This document shows positions 55,930 to 61,464 of a stretch of DNA of 64,000 nt, piece by piece. The position numbers and the translations under genes were made by a program. Position 1 is the stretch's first letter; each line of letters opens with the position of its first letter. This DNA comes from Escherichia phage MN03, in the sequence record NC_070990.1; one strand, written 5' to 3'. The notes beneath the pieces are model-generated. The model was not told where the DNA came from, searched no databases, and saw nothing but the letters and a program-made list of their open reading frames with translations.

Positions 55930-55956
55930 TTAAAAAAGGACTCTCCGAAAAGAGTC
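55930..55956 (-). terminator. rho-independent terminator (minus strand)
   Basis: GACTCT-TTTCGG-AGAGTC hairpin plus TTTTTT on the minus strand. Confidence 0.55.
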
Positions 55957-56020
55957 AAGCTTTAAATACAAAAAGATATTACCCAATATCTGTGGATAAC
56001 CTGCTCTTAAAATATCTATC

Positions 56021-56140
56021 CGACGGATGTTCGAGGAATGTTCCTCTCCCTAGCATCGGCCCCATACGGGAAATATATTAAGATTAGGTTAGTTGAGTCA
56101 GAATAACTCACATAGCCCTCCGAAGAAGGCTATAGGCGTT
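56021..56140. repeat. conserved noncoding element, copy A
   Basis: CGGATGTTCGAG, CTCTCCCTAGC and CTCACATAGCCCTC plus hairpin; shared with copy B. Confidence 0.5.
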
Positions 56141-56147
56141 ACTACAA

Positions 56148-56363
56148 CTAAAAATCACTTGATTTTACAAAATCATCACTAAGGATTTCGTCAATTTCTT
56201 TGTTAGTCAAGTCTTTCCTGAACCAACAACAAGGTACATCCACCCATTGACCAGAGTTGTTTTCTACAGAGCATCTATTGCCTGTCTTACTCTTGCACTT
56301 ATAGGTCTTACCTTTGTCTAGACGGTAGTGTATTCTGTAAACGATCGACACAAGTGTTATCAT
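56148..56363 (-). CDS. hypothetical Cys-containing protein
   Basis: ORF. Confidence 0.3.
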   Translation of the reverse strand: MITLVSIVYRIHYRLDKGKTYKCKSKTGNRCSVENNSGQWVDVPCCWFRKDLTNKEIDEILSDDFVKSSDF

Positions 56364-56596
56364 TACTCGCCTTTCTTAGCACGATCTTTGGCAGTTTTGC
56401 CAGTGCGGATGCGATGAGAAACGTTAACCAGAGTGCCACCATCAACTACGGTAACGCTCTTGTTTTTAGCCAGATCGAACACAGTTTTCTCTGTGCCACC
56501 CAAGCGAATTTGCTTAGGTTCGCTGAAGGTTTGGGTTGATTTGGATTGGAACTGGAACGGTTGACGGATTGCATCAATTGCACTTACTTTAGACAT
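56363..56596 (-). CDS. hypothetical basic protein
   Basis: ORF. Confidence 0.35.
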   Translation of the reverse strand: MSKVSAIDAIRQPFQFQSKSTQTFSEPKQIRLGGTEKTVFDLAKNKSVTVVDGGTLVNVSHRIRTGKTAKDRAKKGE

Positions 56597-56827
56597 AGGG
56601 GAAATTCCTTAAAAAGTCATGGCTGCGTAGAGGGAATTCCCTACGCAAATTGGGCCGCCCACAGAGAGGCGTCATAGTACTAAAAGGAGGAGAGAAGAGA
56701 GCCTATTTAGCTACTTTTTTCTGTCCGTTTACGAACCAGATAATTGAACCGTCAGGCTGTCGTTGACCGAAGCCTTTCTGGTTAATCATATCGTCATAAG
56801 AATATGCTTTACGTCTCATTTGTTTTC

Positions 56828-57082
56828 CTACGAAGTTAAGATGATTTCAGCCTTAATAAACTTCTCACCAACAACCATATCACCAGAGATGACACGTAGT
56901 TCTCCAGTGCCTATGTTAACAGCTCCAGCAGGTTGACAACCCCTGCTTTTAGCTGTCATCATATAAACCTTTTGATTTTGGCACTCTTGGAGAGTGAACA
57001 CATCTGACATATTTAGATCTCTGACGCGGAGGATTTTTTCCTCTTTGTCTTTAACTTTAATGTTAATAATGCTCATATGCAC
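56828..57082 (-). CDS. small paralog family protein (GxVF family), member 11
   Basis: LNMSDVFT motif. Confidence 0.4.
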   Translation of the reverse strand: MHMSIINIKVKDKEEKILRVRDLNMSDVFTLQECQNQKVYMMTAKSRGCQPAGAVNIGTGELRVISGDMVVGEKFIKAEIILTS

Positions 57083-57327
57083 TACTCCTGAACCACTGAC
57101 ATACGAATCATTTCTACCTGATCATCAAGACCTTTAACAGATAACACACCTGTGGAAAGGTTTACCACAGGAACCCAACCACTGGCTATACGGATGTTAC
57201 CAGAAGCATTTTCAACCCTCATATAATACTGAGGAGAGGCACTTCCGTGCTGAATCACGAAAGGGTTTCCGGGAATGATTGTTTCCAATCGAACCGTATT
57301 ATCCTTTTTCTTTGGGATGATTTTCAT
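57082..57327 (-). CDS. small paralog family protein (GxVF family), member 10
   Basis: MKIIPKK start; IIPGNPFV motif. Confidence 0.4.
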   Translation of the reverse strand: MKIIPKKKDNTVRLETIIPGNPFVIQHGSASPQYYMRVENASGNIRIASGWVPVVNLSTGVLSVKGLDDQVEMIRMSVVQE

Positions 57328-57575
57328 TATGTATTATCCACCAAAAGTTCTGCCGACACAGGAATAACTCGACAATAAATAGAAGGTGCTGTTACATTGC
57401 CATCAGACAGACGAAGAGTGATTGATCTGTCAGAGTTGATAGTAACGTTTGGACTTGCAGACACAGACCCTTTGACATACAGGGTTGCATTGTCAGGAAA
57501 CTTAAACACAGCTCCGCTGGGAAGTGAGTTGAGGTCAACTGTAGTCACTTCTTCTTTCTTGTGAGTAATCTTCAT
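57327..57575 (-). CDS. small paralog family protein (GxVF family), member 9
   Basis: Trimmed to MKITHKK; LNSLPSGAVFKF motif. Confidence 0.4.
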   Translation of the reverse strand: MKITHKKEEVTTVDLNSLPSGAVFKFPDNATLYVKGSVSASPNVTINSDRSITLRLSDGNVTAPSIYCRVIPVSAELLVDNT

Positions 57576-57576
57576 A

Positions 57577-57807
57577 TTATTTACCCTGAATAATAAGTTT
57601 AGATTCGAACAGATCAACAGTATTGGACAAAGGGACAGGAAAGAAAATATCTTTAGGGTTCCGAACACACATTGCAGAATGCTCCCCTGTTTTTATCCAG
57701 AATTTAGGGACTACATCGTCACCAGTAAAACGAAAAACATCTCCATTCTCCAAGTCAGAGAAAGTCTTGGAGGGTGTTTTGCTTTTTGGTACTAGCTCAA
57801 AATTCAT
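57577..57807 (-). CDS. small paralog family protein (GxVF family), member 8
   Basis: LENGDVFRF ... KFWIKTG. Confidence 0.4.
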   Translation of the reverse strand: MNFELVPKSKTPSKTFSDLENGDVFRFTGDDVVPKFWIKTGEHSAMCVRNPKDIFFPVPLSNTVDLFESKLIIQGK

Positions 57808-57815
57808 CTTGATTC

Positions 57816-58127
57816 CTATTTAAGTTTGAGGCTAATGTTAAGGTGCATACATGCCCTGTTCTGTACAGCAGCATAACTTCTACCAAGCATGTCAGCCATT
57901 CTCTGAATAGACATAAACCCGGCATTACGGATAAGGAACTGATCTTCTTCTTTAGACCACTTGACTCGGATTGAAGCTCTTGATATTCCGAATTTAGTGC
58001 AAGCTGTGTTAACAGCATTCTCCGTTACATTCATAATCTGAGCAACTTCTTGAACCGAGTACTCTTTGATCAGTCTCCGAAGATTTTCAATCTGCATCGG
58101 AGTCCATATAGTTCTTCGTGCTTTCAT
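57816..58127 (-). CDS. DNA-binding protein with two tandem HTH-like repeats
   Basis: Two repeats of W(T/S)xEE...L...VQExAQxMN... type. Confidence 0.4.
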   Translation of the reverse strand: MKARRTIWTPMQIENLRRLIKEYSVQEVAQIMNVTENAVNTACTKFGISRASIRVKWSKEEDQFLIRNAGFMSIQRMADMLGRSYAAVQNRACMHLNISLKLK

Positions 58128-58417
58128 ACATCCTCCAATTAAACGTTTATATAAGACTTGCTTAGATAAAGATTCAATAAAATAGGGGGAGGGGACGAAT
58201 CCTCCCTTATCCTATTAGTTAATATTGCATGTAAGATCTAACAATCGGTTGCCTTTGTAGGAATAAGCGTTATGCTAATCCAGCACTAAACTCCCGCCCC
58301 CTTAGTGGGCTGGGTTATTAAAGGGTAACGCCCTTATGGGCTAGTTACATGAATGTTAGTTTGATAGGAGATCTGAAGTCCTATCTCAAAGGACTCTCGT
58401 AAGAATCCTTCACGATA
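58128..58417. other. 290-bp structured noncoding region
   Basis: No ORF with RBS; hairpins GGGAGG...CCTCCC and AGTCCT...AGGACT. Confidence 0.3.
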
Positions 58418-58675
58418 TTACTTAAAGATAAAATGCATAACTGCATCATATGCTTTAAACAGAAGCCAACCTATTGGATAAAAAACTCCTGACAGTATTG
58501 AGATAGGCCACAACACAATTAAGAGAACAACCATCATCTCATCAGGTTCAGAGCTGGTAGACCCTGTTGTAATGACCCCTTTTAGTAGACCTTTCTTGTA
58601 TAGCAGTTTCATCACTAAGACAGAAAGGAATACTCCAATAAAGTAAACTGAGATAAAAATATCAAGTAAACCCAT
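58418..58675 (-). CDS. small multi-TM membrane protein (holin-like candidate)
   Basis: 85 aa, 2-3 predicted TM segments. Confidence 0.4.
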   Translation of the reverse strand: MGLLDIFISVYFIGVFLSVLVMKLLYKKGLLKGVITTGSTSSEPDEMMVVLLIVLWPISILSGVFYPIGWLLFKAYDAVMHFIFK

Positions 58676-58824
58676 TTAATCGTCTCTTACTTGTTCAACT
58701 TTCGTCGGCTATCTCTCCAAGCCAACCAAGTGTAGGTTTTCAGTTCTTCAAAGTCTTCTGGAGAGAATAGATAATCTTTGAAGGTGTTCCCAAACCACTC
58801 TAAAAATTCTTCAGTCATAAGATT

Positions 58825-59001
58825 CTCTTAACAAGATTGGTCACACGGCTGATCACCACATGTTTTACAGATCACTGGTGAGTAACTACAGGCAGGATAA
58901 ACAGACACCCCATCAAACGTCTCACATCCACAATCAGGACATGTACCGTTGGATTCCATGTCATCATCGTCATCTACTTCACCGCCACCAAAACAACTCA
59001 T
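58825..59001 (-). CDS. Cys-rich small protein (58 aa)
   Basis: Strong AAGGAG RBS; 10 Cys including CPDCGC and CKTCGD. Confidence 0.35.
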
Positions 59002-59010
59002 ACAGGCTCC

Positions 59011-59232
59011 TTAGTAAACTAAACCTGTAGCCTTTGCATCAGGCTGAGGGACTACTTTTGCACTAGGGCGATAGCCATCCACTGAGCCGTTCCAAAGATT
59101 GACACAGGTGATATATCCATCGTCTATGATGTCTGTTTTAATCCAGAAGTGTTTATCATGACCAAAAATACTTCCGTTTGGCAGCGTGGACAGCTCAACG
59201 GTTTTAAGTGACTGCTTAGAGTCTAGTTTCAT
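59011..59232 (-). CDS. small paralog family protein (GxVF family), member 7
   Basis: LSTLPNGSIFGHDKHFWIKTD. Confidence 0.4.
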   Translation of the reverse strand: MKLDSKQSLKTVELSTLPNGSIFGHDKHFWIKTDIIDDGYITCVNLWNGSVDGYRPSAKVVPQPDAKATGLVY

Positions 59233-59241
59233 ATAAGTTCC

Positions 59242-59439
59242 TTAATATACCAAACCATGTAAAAGAAACACCCTCTTTGTAAGCTCTGCTTTAGCTCTGT
59301 AATAAGCCTTAGAACCTAACAGGCGGCTCTTAACAAAGAACTTAATGTCATTGCTAACATCTTGTATTAAACGCTCCTGTACAGTTTCTGAGGAGTTATT
59401 AATCGAATCAATTAACACCTTTGTAGATGTGTAATTCAT
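59242..59439 (-). CDS. hypothetical protein
   Basis: Trimmed to an internal ATG next to the lipoprotein stop. Confidence 0.3.
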   Translation of the reverse strand: MNYTSTKVLIDSINNSSETVQERLIQDVSNDIKFFVKSRLLGSKAYYRAKAELTKRVFLLHGLVY

Positions 59440-59440
59440 A

Positions 59441-59740
59441 TCACCACTCCTTACCAGTGGTAACTGTAGAGCCACCACACCACAACGCTGTATCAATCAC
59501 AACATTATCCGGTGTAGATTTCTCTTCGTTGACAGAGGGGTTAGCATTAGAGCAGGTTGCTCCGTTCCAGCGCATATCAATTTCACCAGAAGGAACCTTC
59601 TCACCTTTATGCCAGCGAGAAACACAAACACCTTCCACTGCTACTGCACACCATCCATCAGGACGGCTCTGTACGCAGCCTGTAAGGGCTATGCAGACAA
59701 GGAAGATACAGATTAGGGATATTACACCACCCCAACTCAT
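59441..59740 (-). CDS. predicted lipoprotein
   Basis: Signal peptide with lipobox ALTGC; Cys-rich mature part. Confidence 0.5.
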   Translation of the reverse strand: MSWGGVISLICIFLVCIALTGCVQSRPDGWCAVAVEGVCVSRWHKGEKVPSGEIDMRWNGATCSNANPSVNEEKSTPDNVVIDTALWCGGSTVTTGKEW

Positions 59741-59759
59741 AACTGCCTCCTATTAGATT

Positions 59760-59835
59760 TGGTGCGCCCTACAGGACTCGAACCTGTAACCAATAGCTTA
59801 GAAGGCTACTGCTCTATCCATTGAGCTAAGAGCGC
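59760..59835 (-). tRNA. tRNA-Arg(UCU): tRNA-Arg (anticodon UCU)
   Basis: Manual fold: acceptor GCGCTCT/AGGGCGC, D-arm GCTC/GAGC, anticodon stem GTAGC/GCTAT with loop CTTCTAA, T-arm ACAGG-TTCGAGT-CCTGT, discriminator A, encoded CCA. Confidence 0.85.
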
Positions 59836-59843
59836 AGAATTAT

Positions 59844-60008
59844 TTAGATCATATCTCGCTTGGTGATATGACCACATGTTTTACATCGAAGTATATAACG
59901 AGTACCTGTGTCTTCTATTTGACCGATCTCATTGTATATGTGTAAACGAATTTCTTTTATTGTCTCCCAATCATGGAGATGGAAGAAACGTTTAAACCAC
60001 TTGAACAT
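59844..60008 (-). CDS. zinc-ribbon protein
   Basis: CKTCGH motif. Confidence 0.3.
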   Translation of the reverse strand: MFKWFKRFFHLHDWETIKEIRLHIYNEIGQIEDTGTRYILRCKTCGHITKRDMI

Positions 60009-60015
60009 ATTAACC

Positions 60016-60267
60016 TCAAGCACAAGCAGGGAGTGTGATGATTTTATGCTTACCATCAAACTCTCCAAATAAACCTAAGAATGTGGGACTGTAAGTACCA
60101 GTACAAACAAACTCATCAAACAATGCGTTATAACTAGGCTTAATCTTCCAAGCCCATACATAACCCATCTTGTCAATTGCAATATAACGAGTGTTCAGAG
60201 GAACAGCCATCATCACATCATTAACTGCAATCACTTTAGTTATTGGTGCAGCTTGGAAGTTTTTCAT
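60016..60267 (-). CDS. hypothetical protein
   Basis: ORF. Confidence 0.3.
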   Translation of the reverse strand: MKNFQAAPITKVIAVNDVMMAVPLNTRYIAIDKMGYVWAWKIKPSYNALFDEFVCTGTYSPTFLGLFGEFDGKHKIITLPACA

Positions 60268-60488
60268 CCTACTCTCCTAACGTTTAGGGTAGCTTGATAA
60301 AATTTGACAGGACAACTTCTGTCAAACGTAAATCTTGTTTCAGGATTATTTATACAGATAGCATGTCTGTGCATAACCTTCATATATAAAGGAGGTTTTG
60401 TATCCCCATCTATCTCTAGAGAGAACACATCACCATTACGGAGGCTACCAAAAGTGTTATCTTTAGGCTCAGAGCGAACGATAATCAT
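60264..60488 (-). CDS. small paralog family protein (GxVF family), member 6
   Basis: LRNGDVFSL. Confidence 0.4.
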   Translation of the reverse strand: MIIVRSEPKDNTFGSLRNGDVFSLEIDGDTKPPLYMKVMHRHAICINNPETRFTFDRSCPVKFYQATLNVRRVG

Positions 60489-60661
60489 ACTTTACCTTTG
60501 ATAAAAATATCATTACCACAGACACAGCATGAACGAACAACAGTAGCGCCACGCTGAACGATACGAACCTCTTCCTTAACCAGATTAATACGAGCACCGC
60601 AGCAAGGAGAGTTGACATAAGAGTAACCAGCTTGCGTATGTTTGATTGTTTGCTTAGACAT
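60488..60661 (-). CDS. Cys-rich zinc-ribbon protein (57 aa)
   Basis: Own translation; CCGAR ... CCVCGN. Confidence 0.3.
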
Positions 60662-60699
60662 TTTAGCTTCCTCTTGTTAGTTTAAGTAAGAGTTGTCCC

Positions 60700-60734
60700 T
60701 TAATTAAAACAACAAAGGCCGCCCGAAGGCAGCC
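60700..60734 (-). terminator. rho-independent terminator (minus strand)
   Basis: GGCTGCC-TTCG-GGCGGCC hairpin plus TTTGTTGTTTT on the minus strand. Confidence 0.55.
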
Positions 60735-61131
60735 TCTCTTTATTTGTTAACTGTTATACGTCCAATTACCTTGCTTGTTACGGATGGCTGACATTGCATG
60801 AATCCAAAAGCCTTCCAGTTTCAGAGCACCATTAGCTACTGCATCCATACGTTCAGGGCGGTTCATACGTTTGGTTGATACTTTCATACATATCTCTCTT
60901 TGTTAGTGGAGGCATTATTGCCAGTTGATATAAGGGATAGCCCTAGTCAGGAGGCTAATTCTGACCGCGTACTCATTGCCGACCTTCTCTGCCTAAGAGT
61001 TCAGGTTCTAGAGCTATCTCTTATTCCAACTGGTGAAGACTTCCTACCCCTAGGAAGTCTCCTGAATCCCAAACCAATACGTACCCCTACATATTGGAAA
61101 GTCTTTCGAAAATTAACAGGTTTTAGTCTAG

Positions 61132-61245
61132 CACCGGATGTTCGAGCAAGCTCTCCCTAGCGGTGTGGCATATGCCTGAATTAATAAGTTAATGAGGAAC
61201 ACCCTCACATAGCCCTCTGATAAACACAAGGGCTATAAGTCGGTG
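61132..61245. repeat. conserved noncoding element, copy B, inside a 355-bp gene-free gap
   Basis: Same three blocks and hairpin as copy A; begins right after a minus-strand stop codon. Confidence 0.5.
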
Positions 61246-61464
61246 TTACTTTTGGGATAAACACAGATCGGGACGTGGCATAACAGTGGTTGATAGACCG
61301 AAGACTTCAACAGAACCACTGCTCAAGTTAGCAGCCTTACACAAACCATCAGGGGTTTTATCTTCTAGCATCAGCCAGAAACGTTTATCATAAGAGAAAA
61401 CATCACCACCTTTAACGTCCTCTGCATTTGCATATTTAGGATAATCAACTACTTTAATTTCCAT
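61246..61464 (-). CDS. small paralog family protein (GxVF family), member 5
   Basis: VKGGDVFSYDKRFWLM. Confidence 0.4.
   Translation of the reverse strand: MEIKVVDYPKYANAEDVKGGDVFSYDKRFWLMLEDKTPDGLCKAANLSSGSVEVFGLSTTVMPRPDLCLSQK

Follow-up and report, generated by a model that had tools for sequence, protein, structure and literature searches.

The window analysed here, a 64,000-nucleotide stretch of a phiEco32-like (Kuravirus) phage genome, contains two copies (A and B) that are paralogues of a folded RNA domain of about 135 nt outside any described family. The domain folds on the minus (gene-sense) strand, on which it is predicted to be transcribed within the long early transcript. With its sigma factor gp36 and the RNA polymerase inhibitor gp79, phiEco32 serves as a model of how phages take over host transcription, and its published transcription map reportedly gives promoters and a few terminators only. 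We found no paper describing the domain, nor any description of RNA elements in the literature on phiEco32 transcription. None of the Rfam 15 covariance models (ribozymes, riboswitches, sRNAs, and tRNA-like RNAs among them) reached its gathering score on the element, with only noise at E <= 10, and ARAGORN returned a tRNA-Arg only.

An earlier note on this DNA had reported three motifs in two copies of a conserved noncoding element. Each motif does occur exactly twice, at the places given (CGGATGTTCGAG at positions 56024 and 61135, CTCACATAGCCCTC at 56107 and 61204), and the core CTAGGG-N(5-24)-AACATCC has two minus-strand occurrences against 0.05 expected by chance. The strand had not been recognized; the functional strand is minus, so the motif order is to be read reversed. 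The element was put at about 110 nt, but the conserved unit is about 135 nt, and its 40-50 nt AT-rich stretch holds two more covarying hairpins that were overlooked. The hairpin ATAGCC...GGCTAT (HP1) is real and, as had been argued, not a simple terminator: GUGAG rather than a U-tract follows it, and an intrinsic terminator (GC-rich hairpin plus U-tract) is rejected. Both copies had been said to begin shortly after a minus-strand stop codon. Each copy does start at the stop codon of what lies upstream: copy A 5 nt past the stop at 56148-56150, copy B with the stop (61246-61248) falling within the conserved AGUAAC. No ORF is conserved inside the element or in the gap that includes copy B (60888-61245), where an 86-aa plus-strand ORF is found in this phage alone and indel lengths are not multiples of three, so we concur that the gap is noncoding. 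Nothing tested here supports the connection proposed to the HTH protein (57816-58127). Beyond each copy lies a conserved downstream RNA ending at an intrinsic terminator, which had gone unnoticed, as had the full architecture and an antisense match to host nrdD.

About 100 kuraviruses and the 7-11-like Salmonella phages share the element, in keeping with the anticipated conservation in related phages. Kuraviruses carry two copies per genome, even in the reduced 68.5-kb LAMP genome, and Salmonella phage 7-11 carries one, in the syntenic place. A divergent copy on an unrelated contig (60.6 bits) differs in its stems and has the same loop. Copies A and B flank a variable block of small genes.

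The reading as a conserved noncoding element is borne out at the RNA level by covariation in four helices. Standard pairs fill 97.9% of pair cells, against 31-47% in a control with slid partners, and both sides have changed in 14 of the 24 pairs, through few independent events (A, B, the 7-11 group and L138). The alignment includes 91 G.U cells, and reading the opposite strand lowers pairing to 88.1%, an asymmetry that places the structure on the sense strand. The whole A and B RNAs fold with z = -4.0 and z = -4.5, respectively. The lower stem and HP2 are mutually exclusive and both conserved, HP2 reaching 6 bp in phage 7-11. The AU-rich linker of copy A is one strand of an 18-bp helix, P0; in copy B the linker is single-stranded and P0 is not convincingly conserved. 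Features of both copies and their tails are listed in Table 1.

Table 1. Features of copies A and B and of the RNA downstream of each (window coordinates)
Feature	Position	Strand	Sequence or description	Basis
Copy A of shared domain	56009..56145	minus		Covariance model R1, 134.4 bits; alignments
A HP1 upper hairpin	56111..56134	minus	UAUAGCCUUC-UUCG-GAGGGCUAUG	Folding, covariation
A lower stem extending HP1	56143-56138 / 56107-56102	minus	AGUAAC / GUUAUU	Folding, covariation
A HP2, exclusive with lower stem	56095..56109	minus	GAGU/ACUC	U-A <-> C-G double change in Bas88/EK010
A AU-rich linker, 5' strand of P0	56071..56091	minus	UAACCU, UCUUAA, AUAUUU	
A HP3	56061..56070	minus	CCC-GUAU-GGG	G-C <-> C-G covariation
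A P1/loop/P2 region	56020..56059	minus	P1 = 56059-56054 / 56025-56020	
A 7x7 internal loop	56053-56047 / 56032-56026	minus	CUAGGGA / GAACAUC	
A P2 hairpin	56046-56033	minus		
A P0, 3' strand	56017-55997	minus		
nrdD-antisense segment	55982..56015	minus	34 nt against E. coli nrdD mRNA -10..-45	Sequence match
DnaA box	55999-55991	minus	GTTATCCACAG, perfect; consensus 9-mer TTATCCACA	Invariant in all A-type tails
Small hairpin	55975..55990	minus	GAUAUU-GGGU-AAUAUC	Kuraviruses only
AU-rich stretch, then intrinsic terminator	55932..55965	minus	UUUAAAG; 7 bp, UUCG loop, U6	
Copy B of shared domain	61120..61252	minus		Covariance model R1, 122.9 bits; alignments
B HP1 upper hairpin	61208..61237	minus		Folding
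B lower stem	61247-61242 / 61203-61198	minus	AACACC / GGUGUU	C-G <-> U.G <-> U-A covariation among B copies
B HP2	61206-61194	minus	GAGG/CCUC	
B HP3	61167..61176	minus	GGC-AUAU-GCC	Covariation
B P1, loop, P2	61132..61165	minus	P1 CACCG/CGGUG	Covariation
B 7x7 loop	61160-61154 / 61143-61137	minus		
B P2	61153-61144	minus		
B tail, conserved structured leader	60888..61131	minus	About 240 nt	Alignments, folding
B leader, two long hairpins	61097-61074 and 61062-61035	minus	UA-GGGG-UA loops	
B leader, multibranch region and variable insert	about 61009-60950 (insert)	minus	Insert of about 59 nt	
46-aa ORF (gp112), putative coding payload of B	60747..60887	minus	phi32_112 homologue, basic N-terminus	
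Intrinsic terminator closing B unit	60714..60737	minus		Stem covaries, conserved in phiEco32 and EK010

The 7x7 internal loop has 12 invariant bases among 38 distinct sequences; the P2 loops vary freely. The loop pair beside P2 is A.G in 22 sequences, C.A in 14, A.A in 2, and C.G in none, and the A.G <-> C.A switch, which is non-Watson-Crick and isosteric, is seen between sequences that are 96-98% identical. The loop thus conserved appears to be a specific tertiary or recognition motif and, switch included, gives structural biologists a new and clearly defined RNA motif to study. It might be no more than an operator, at which a phage-encoded (or host) RNA-binding protein would control translation or decay of neighboring early genes with no role in punctuation or antitermination. 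An invariant purine-rich loop with tandem G.A-type pairs and an isosteric switch is typical of protein recognition, and UAGGG occurs four times in about 215 nt of B RNA. However, 70 nt or more separate the loop from the nearest following ribosome-binding site, the loop is invariant though phage proteins diverge strongly (gp112 and gp135 of 7-11 share 47% identity over 32 aa), and family searches identified no candidate protein, so that we regard an operator as improbable. Since the C.A variant no longer contains GGA, recognition of that triplet in the CsrA manner is excluded.

Copy A is predicted to form a three-way junction in which a short hairpin, its RUAU loop conserved, adjoins the helix bearing the invariant internal loop. 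The intrinsic terminator (55956-55939) lies 65 nt downstream of A in every A-type sequence out to phage 7-11, in which it is annotated as a terminator. This junction and terminator, together with two exclusive yet conserved stems, could be modeled as a new self-cleaving ribozyme that makes the payload 5' end, or as a riboswitch-like, ligand-sensing attenuator acting on the terminator downstream. Either is very unlikely in our estimation: Rfam ribozymes and riboswitches gave no match even at E <= 10, copy B lacks an adjacent terminator, and we found no convincing antiterminator fold that could compete with the terminator.

The tail of copy A, of about 85 nt, looks sRNA-like: its terminator carries a U-tail and follows an AU-rich stretch, and it has a conserved region complementary to the neighborhood of a target translation start. 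That target is nrdD, the host anaerobic ribonucleotide reductase gene. The 34-nt duplex has one bulge, one U.U, and one G.U, and the pairing region on the nrdD leader directly adjoins the Shine-Dalgarno sequence. A single match per genome was found, in 5423 of the 5426 E. coli genomes, in the nrdD-treC intergenic region, where it is antisense and downstream of the NrdR-box promoter. The tail sequence is invariant in all kuraviruses examined and, among the matches listed from 50,697 phage records, all phages are kuravirus relatives. Its flank AUUGGG agrees with the E. coli version of the leader and not with that of Salmonella; the tails of Salmonella phages match the Salmonella leader over 13-19 nt only. 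P0 draws its 3' strand from the 5' half of the antisense segment, and about half of the segment is sequestered in that helix.

Part of the conservation of the nrdD match could reside in the DNA, since the match contains a consensus DnaA box. An element acting wholly as DNA (a T4-type promoter/stem-loop cassette, a DnaA-dependent replication or roadblock site, or a recombination hotspot) could invoke this perfect, invariant box of the high-affinity type, a weak sigma-70-like CTGACT-18-TATATT at 56101-56072 in copy A, and the placement of both elements around the variable gene block. We nevertheless find it very improbable. The box is single and stands beside copy A only, not in the cluster with an AT-rich unwinding element expected of a replication origin; conservation of the promoter-like hexamers does not extend to Suseptimavirus, 7-11, L138, or copy B, and the predicted start would destroy the covarying HP3; and compensatory changes, strand-specific G.U pairs, and the non-Watson-Crick switch point to RNA. 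No sigma-70 promoter is conserved inside the element, and the sigma-70/T4-type cassette, a 9/12 match in kuravirus copy A only, was rejected.

Downstream of copy B, after the structured leader, comes gp112, alone or together with gp111, ahead of a terminator whose stem covaries. The tail of B has no detectable host complement, and gp112 matched no recognizable or known family.

Tentatively, and with less than even confidence, we read the domain from its sequence as a punctuation or handle module that would delimit and stabilize payload RNAs, setting the upstream mRNA apart from a payload RNA extending to the next intrinsic terminator. On this view, the upstream mRNA would have a 3' cap in HP1, right behind the stop codon. 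Cleavage would fall in the AU-rich linker, with RNase E or RNase III as candidate enzymes, and the compact junction made up of HP3, P1, P2, and the invariant 7x7 loop would shield the 5' end of the payload and serve as a factor-binding site. Payload A might then be a phage riboregulator of host anaerobic dNTP synthesis, acting through pairing with the nrdD leader, and payload B would comprise the 240-nt structured leader, the 46-aa ORF, and the terminator. What the analysis establishes is the fold with its strand, its conservation and copy number, the arrangement of the units, and the complementarity to nrdD; cleavage, release of discrete RNAs, a factor that binds the loop, and an effect on nrdD are steps that we infer. 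A protective 5' structure alone needs no 12 invariant loop bases, so some specific partner must be assumed. Certain features fit the module poorly: about half of the A antisense segment is buried in P0, P0 is unconvincing in B and the B tail lacks a host complement, and the nrdD match includes a DnaA box and shrinks to 13-19 nt between Salmonella-phage tails and the Salmonella leader.

A broader joint claim, that this is a new phage RNA class engaging a conserved host machine through the 7x7 loop and that copy A carries a riboregulator of host nrdD, we judge somewhat unlikely. Either RNA polymerase would be that machine, by antitermination that is factor-independent or gp112-assisted, or else the RNA decay apparatus would be, with the domain as a nuclease-resistant fold. 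If true, this would be the first known virulent-coliphage riboregulator to pair directly with a host dNTP-synthesis mRNA, and the anaerobic nucleotide supply of the host would be reprogrammed via the nrdD leader. The antisense tail leads to a testable hypothesis, that a strictly lytic gut phage steers host anaerobic ribonucleotide reduction by RNA pairing. Conserved structured RNA placed ahead of terminators inside the operon would supply a level of control missing from the current picture of phiEco32-type takeover, and the element could explain how the early transcript of about 25 kb passes, or gets cut at, these points. Given the wide use of kuraviruses in phage-therapy cocktails, any host-directed RNAs that they encode would be of practical interest.

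The main rival to the module is processive antitermination like that of HK022 put or lambda nut, which we consider unlikely. The 7x7 loop of the nascent junction would bind the transcribing host RNA polymerase, unaided or helped by a small phage protein, for which the basic 46-aa gp112, encoded just downstream of B, is a candidate, and the modified polymerase would read through terminators within the operon. Both early-transcript copies have a conserved intrinsic terminator downstream. From the terminator behind copy A to the ribosome-binding site that follows it, no promoter is recognizable, and genes 90 to 69 therefore depend on read-through. Invariance of the loop in E. coli and Salmonella phages fits a conserved host target, e.g., RNA polymerase. 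Phage 7-11 has the element together with a gp112 homologue, and the GAP52 stretch examined has neither. Antitermination would, however, leave HP1, the nrdD-antisense tail, and the 240-nt B leader unexplained, and the candidate protein gp112 belongs to no recognizable family.

The putL and putR RNAs of HK022, which span about 70 nt in two stem-loops and closely follow PL and PR, are likewise a pair of similar cis-acting RNAs (PMC9378689). Like them, the element forms two similar structured RNAs in early transcripts, upstream of terminators that require read-through, and non-canonical pairs matter in both. Unlike them, it runs to about 135 nt, has at least four helices besides the 7x7 loop, and lies kilobases from the early promoters; R1 scored at best 7 bits (E = 1.3) against HK022 22-32 kb, and the element resembles put in neither sequence nor structure. 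Put RNA works in cis through the zinc-binding domain of the RNA polymerase beta' subunit and needs no protein factor. Lambda nutL/nutR with N are alike in gene order: copy B, a small ORF (gp112, well placed and with a basic N-terminus), and a terminator parallel nutL-N-tL1, and an ORF, copy A, and a terminator parallel cro-nutR-tR1. The element nonetheless has no boxB-type GNRA-like hairpin, no convincing upstream boxA (CGCUCUUUA), and no N homology, the 7-11 linker (UCUUUUUAAACAAUU) alone loosely resembling rrn boxA. Pairs of boxB and N evolve fast, whereas the loop of the element is invariant across distant phages.

The RNase III signals of T7 early mRNA are repeated, similar intergenic hairpins with an internal loop, just after stop codons, which leave a 3' hairpin on the upstream mRNA. 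Here too, such hairpins recur in a virulent podovirus, within its polycistronic early mRNA. The element differs in that P1 and P2 appear shorter than the usual two helical turns (P1, loop, and P2 give about 18 stacked positions, to which copy A adds the 18-bp P0), in its extra hairpins, and in its symmetric and invariant loop; any cleavage of it would be putative. Hfq-type 3'-UTR sRNAs such as CpxQ and SroC resemble the A tail in having a conserved seed, an AU-rich stretch, and a six-U terminator, and the tail is, like them, apparently co-transcribed with upstream ORFs with no promoter of its own. Its complementarity of 34 nt, partly buried in P0, goes far beyond a typical seed, and the RNA comes from a virulent phage and is putatively aimed at a host gene. 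Flavivirus xrRNAs are compact junction folds with invariant bases, often duplicated, that set the 5' end of a stable noncoding RNA. The element differs from them in fold and sequence, and the resemblance is one of analogy only; to our knowledge a 5'-3' exonuclease like Xrn1 is absent from E. coli, and in its place scanning by RNase E would be what such a fold obstructs.

The interval from 55.9 to 61.5 kb of the window is 95-97% identical to the phiEco32-like coliphages (Kuravirus, Gordonclarkvirinae). All genes of this region lie on the minus strand, and they are early, host-takeover genes corresponding to phiEco32 genes 90-113; the temporal classes of phiEco32 genes are summarised in PMC8948821. 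The two 12-14-nt motifs reported in an earlier note occur exactly twice each, at the coordinates it gave, and the combined core CTAGGG-N(5-24)-AACATCC has two minus-strand occurrences against 0.05 expected. They belong to two copies, A and B, of a folded RNA domain of about 135 nt, here called the element, whose parts and surroundings are listed in the table.

The earlier note had also placed the start of each copy near a stop codon and regarded the gap around copy B as noncoding. Both points hold: the 5' AGUAAC of each copy overlaps a stop codon or comes right after it, and relatives keep no ORF from either gap. An 86-aa plus-strand ORF in gap B was found in this phage alone, and indels in the gaps have lengths that are not multiples of three. 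A coding function was ruled out on these grounds. Small ORFs drawn across the elements in GenBank (Bas88_0102, Bas88_0103, and SeKF_80 CDS0124 on the opposite strand; L127 6839-7107 and L003 1479-1619 in our sequence set) are probably over-annotations, since none is conserved. Duplication together with flanking genes was likewise ruled out; the duplication is confined to the noncoding part, since copies A and B have unrelated proteins at their flanks.

Features of the two copies of the element and their surroundings
Feature	Coordinates	Strand	Remarks
Copy A	56009-56145	minus	Bounded by phi32_91 homologue stop codon (56148-56150) and 50-aa gene starting 55912
Copy B	61120-61252	minus	Bounded by phi32_113 homologue stop codon (61246-61248) and 46-aa gene starting 60887
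Domain part 1		minus	AGUAAC, 5' end
Domain part 2		minus	HP1, 9-10-bp hairpin; copy A loop C(UUCG)G
Domain part 3		minus	Lower-stem extension of HP1 or small hairpin HP2, mutually exclusive
Domain part 4		minus	AU-rich linker
Domain part 5		minus	HP3, 3-4 bp, RUAU loop
Domain part 6		minus	P1, 7x7 internal loop, P2
nrdD-complementary segment	56015-55982		In RNA downstream of copy A
DnaA box	55991-55999		Within nrdD-complementary segment
Copy A terminator	55956-55939		
Third long noncoding early-region gap	58128-58417	minus	Between phi32_101 and phi32_100/99 homologues
Terminator-like hairpin in third gap	58206-58187		
tRNA-Arg (anticodon UCU)	59760-59835	minus	Between copies A and B, same early operon
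46-aa ORF (gp112)	60747-60887	minus	Terminator downstream, at 60737-60714
Insert of ~59 nt in B leader	~60950-61009	minus	

The fold was assessed on 38 distinct sequences, in which standard pairs occupy 97.9% of pair cells, compared with 31-47% when the partners are slid, and 14 of the 24 pairs show changes on both sides. Copy A forms the lower stem from AGUAAC/GUUAUU, copy B from AACACC/GGUGUU, and among B copies this stem covaries through C-G, U.G and U-A; in HP2, which has 6 bp in phage 7-11 and in a divergent homologue on contig L138, GAGU/ACUC covaries with GAGC/GCUC. On the opposite strand pairing falls to 88.1%, owing to 91 G.U cells, and the folded strand is therefore the gene-sense one. 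Among the readings of its function, an element acting at the DNA level is one of the less likely, as is a ribozyme or riboswitch; by eye, a hammerhead core was rejected for want of stem III and a kink-turn because its 3-nt bulge geometry is impossible.

The internal loop reads CUAGGG[A/C] / [G/A]AACAUC, with 12 invariant bases. The pair beside P2 is A.G in 22, C.A in 14 and A.A in two of the 38 sequences, and never C.G; it switches between sequences of 96-98% identity, and does so in each of the lineages A, B, 7-11 and L138. By isostericity, the alternation of A.G and C.A suggests a putative sheared (trans Hoogsteen/sugar-edge) pair, which together with the neighbouring G.A would make a tandem G.A motif. 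Such constraints speak for an RNA fold that presents a specific surface for tertiary contacts or recognition. A protein operator, at which the element would serve as a binding site, is among the less likely readings; a CsrA site was rejected by eye, as the GGA is lost in the C.A variant.

Conservation in related phages, on which the earlier note had made its proposal depend, was borne out by R1, a covariance model of the element, which detects two copies, no more and no fewer, in each of the kuravirus stretches examined, the reduced 68.5-kb LAMP genome included, one copy at the syntenic position in phage 7-11 (stretch 40-90 kb) and none in GAP52 (stretch 30-76.6 kb). By BLAST, some 100 phage records match each copy, and the matches of copy A extend, at 72-75% identity, to the Salmonella phage 7-11 with its relatives. 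A strict core pattern, searched in IMG/VR, GTDB (one genome per species) and JGI/ENA metagenomes, matches only contigs of the kuravirus and 7-11-like groups and two more that had been binned as bacterial MAGs; a looser one (GCTAGGG-N(5-30)-AACATCC) gave 120 chance matches in IMG/VR, none of which folds like the element or fits the model. The two binned contigs, L138 (JBOFGJ010000684.1) and L139 (CALKAR010000070.1), come from Flavobacterium and Peptococcaceae bins and are probably mis-binned phage contigs. L138 also carries a series of small ORFs, as is typical of a phage early region, and its homologue (60.6 bits) differs in stem sequences while sharing the architecture and an identical loop. 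Rfam 15 gave no match at the elements, either at gathering score or at E <= 10, ARAGORN no tRNA there, and the accessible phiEco32, 7-11 and SU10 literature, a scope outside which two primary phiEco32 papers fall, does not mention the element. It is secure that the element, carried as two paralogues on the sense strand of the early transcript, is an RNA domain that is new, structured and conserved.

All A-type sequences compared (kuravirus, Suseptimavirus and 7-11-like) continue downstream of copy A with CAGGUUAUCCACAG, which does not vary, then the AU-rich UUUAAAG, and then a terminator (7 bp, UUCG loop, six U). The 7-11 record also annotates it as a terminator, and the next gene's ribosome-binding site comes directly after it. 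The complete A RNA has a folding z of -4.0. Here an 18-bp interrupted helix, P0, joins the linker to the stretch that follows P1 and forms a three-way junction with HP3 and P1-P2; one P0 pair covaries, in the 7-11 group, and in copy B the helix is not supported. No conserved sigma-70 promoter was recognised inside the elements, where a promoter was rejected because the hexamers are not conserved, or between the A terminator and the next gene.

When the A RNA was compared with 5,426 complete E. coli genomes, 5,423 gave a single match, in the nrdD-treC intergenic region. The phage RNA segment, AUAUUUUAAGAGCAGGUUAUCCACAGAUAUUGGG, runs in the sense of the strand opposite to nrdD and is therefore complementary to nrdD mRNA, from -10, directly beside the GGAG Shine-Dalgarno sequence, to -45. 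Because RNAduplex returned uninformative whole-length pairings for long sequences, the duplex was taken directly from the alignment; it has a bulged A, a U.U and a G.U, one of each. The published NrdR-box promoter probe of nrdDG is separated from the ATG by 150 nt or more on the upstream side (PMC12176259), which would place the site within the nrdD 5' leader. Among the matches listed for the host segment in 50,697 phage records, the phages are kuravirus relatives only. The Salmonella nrdD leader has the core CUGUGGAUAACCUGUUCUUA in common and differs in its flanks; the kuravirus flank AUUGGG agrees with the E. coli version, and in the 7-11-like tails the continuous complementarity amounts to 13-19 nt. 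No E. coli counterpart of the B tail was detected, short sub-queries included, and nothing homologous to the shared domain lies near nrdD in the host.

Within the complementary segment lies a perfect DnaA box, TTATCCACA, which is of the high-affinity GTTATCCACAG type, invariant in all kuravirus and 7-11-like phages and 35-45 bp upstream of the intrinsic terminator. A DNA-level role for this segment is conceivable; its flank identity far exceeds the requirement of a DnaA box. In the E. coli nrdD-treC sequence (L161, ~1529-1556), read antisense to the nrdD leader, the DnaA-box segment is succeeded by GGGAAAGACGUUUUCC and then seven U. This terminator-like signal, which the Salmonella sequence does not conserve, might be the sign of an antisense RNA in the host.

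After copy B come 240 nt whose structure is conserved and covaries, then the 46-aa ORF, and finally a strong terminator; phiEco32 and EK010 conserve this terminator, and its stem covaries. This leader forms two long hairpins with identical loops (UA-GGGG-UA), UAGGG occurs four times in ~215 nt of B RNA against about once per 1900 nt window-wide, and the complete B RNA has a folding z of -4.5. The insert in this leader is present here and in phiEco32 and absent from LAMP, NJ01, EK010 and Bas88; since it sits within a covarying hairpin, the helix tolerates a variable apical extension. From the two downstream layouts, each copy heads a unit of element, payload and terminator. The third noncoding gap is also strongly structured (z = -3.05), with an HP1-like bipartite hairpin, GUAAC-UAGCCC..GGGCG-UUAC, and gives no R1 match.

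The best mechanistic reading, which we advance tentatively, is a punctuation or handle module, in which the upstream mRNA would be capped by HP1, cleavage would fall in the linker or P0, the junction domain would form a protected, factor-binding 5' end of the payload, and payload A may regulate host nrdD in antisense, in the manner of an sRNA. The product of the 46-aa ORF, gp112, has a basic N-terminus (MKVSTKRMNRPER); its homologue in 7-11, gp135, lies beside a gene annotated 'antitermination protein Q-like', and none was found in the examined stretch of GAP52, likewise without the element. Set against the module, the main rival is processive antitermination of a put- or nut-like kind, which we hold to be somewhat less probable. 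The element falls outside the put and nut families in both structure and sequence (PMC9378689); in favour of this reading, it stands upstream of promoter-less terminators, its loop is invariant across hosts, and the gene order around gp112 is lambda-like.
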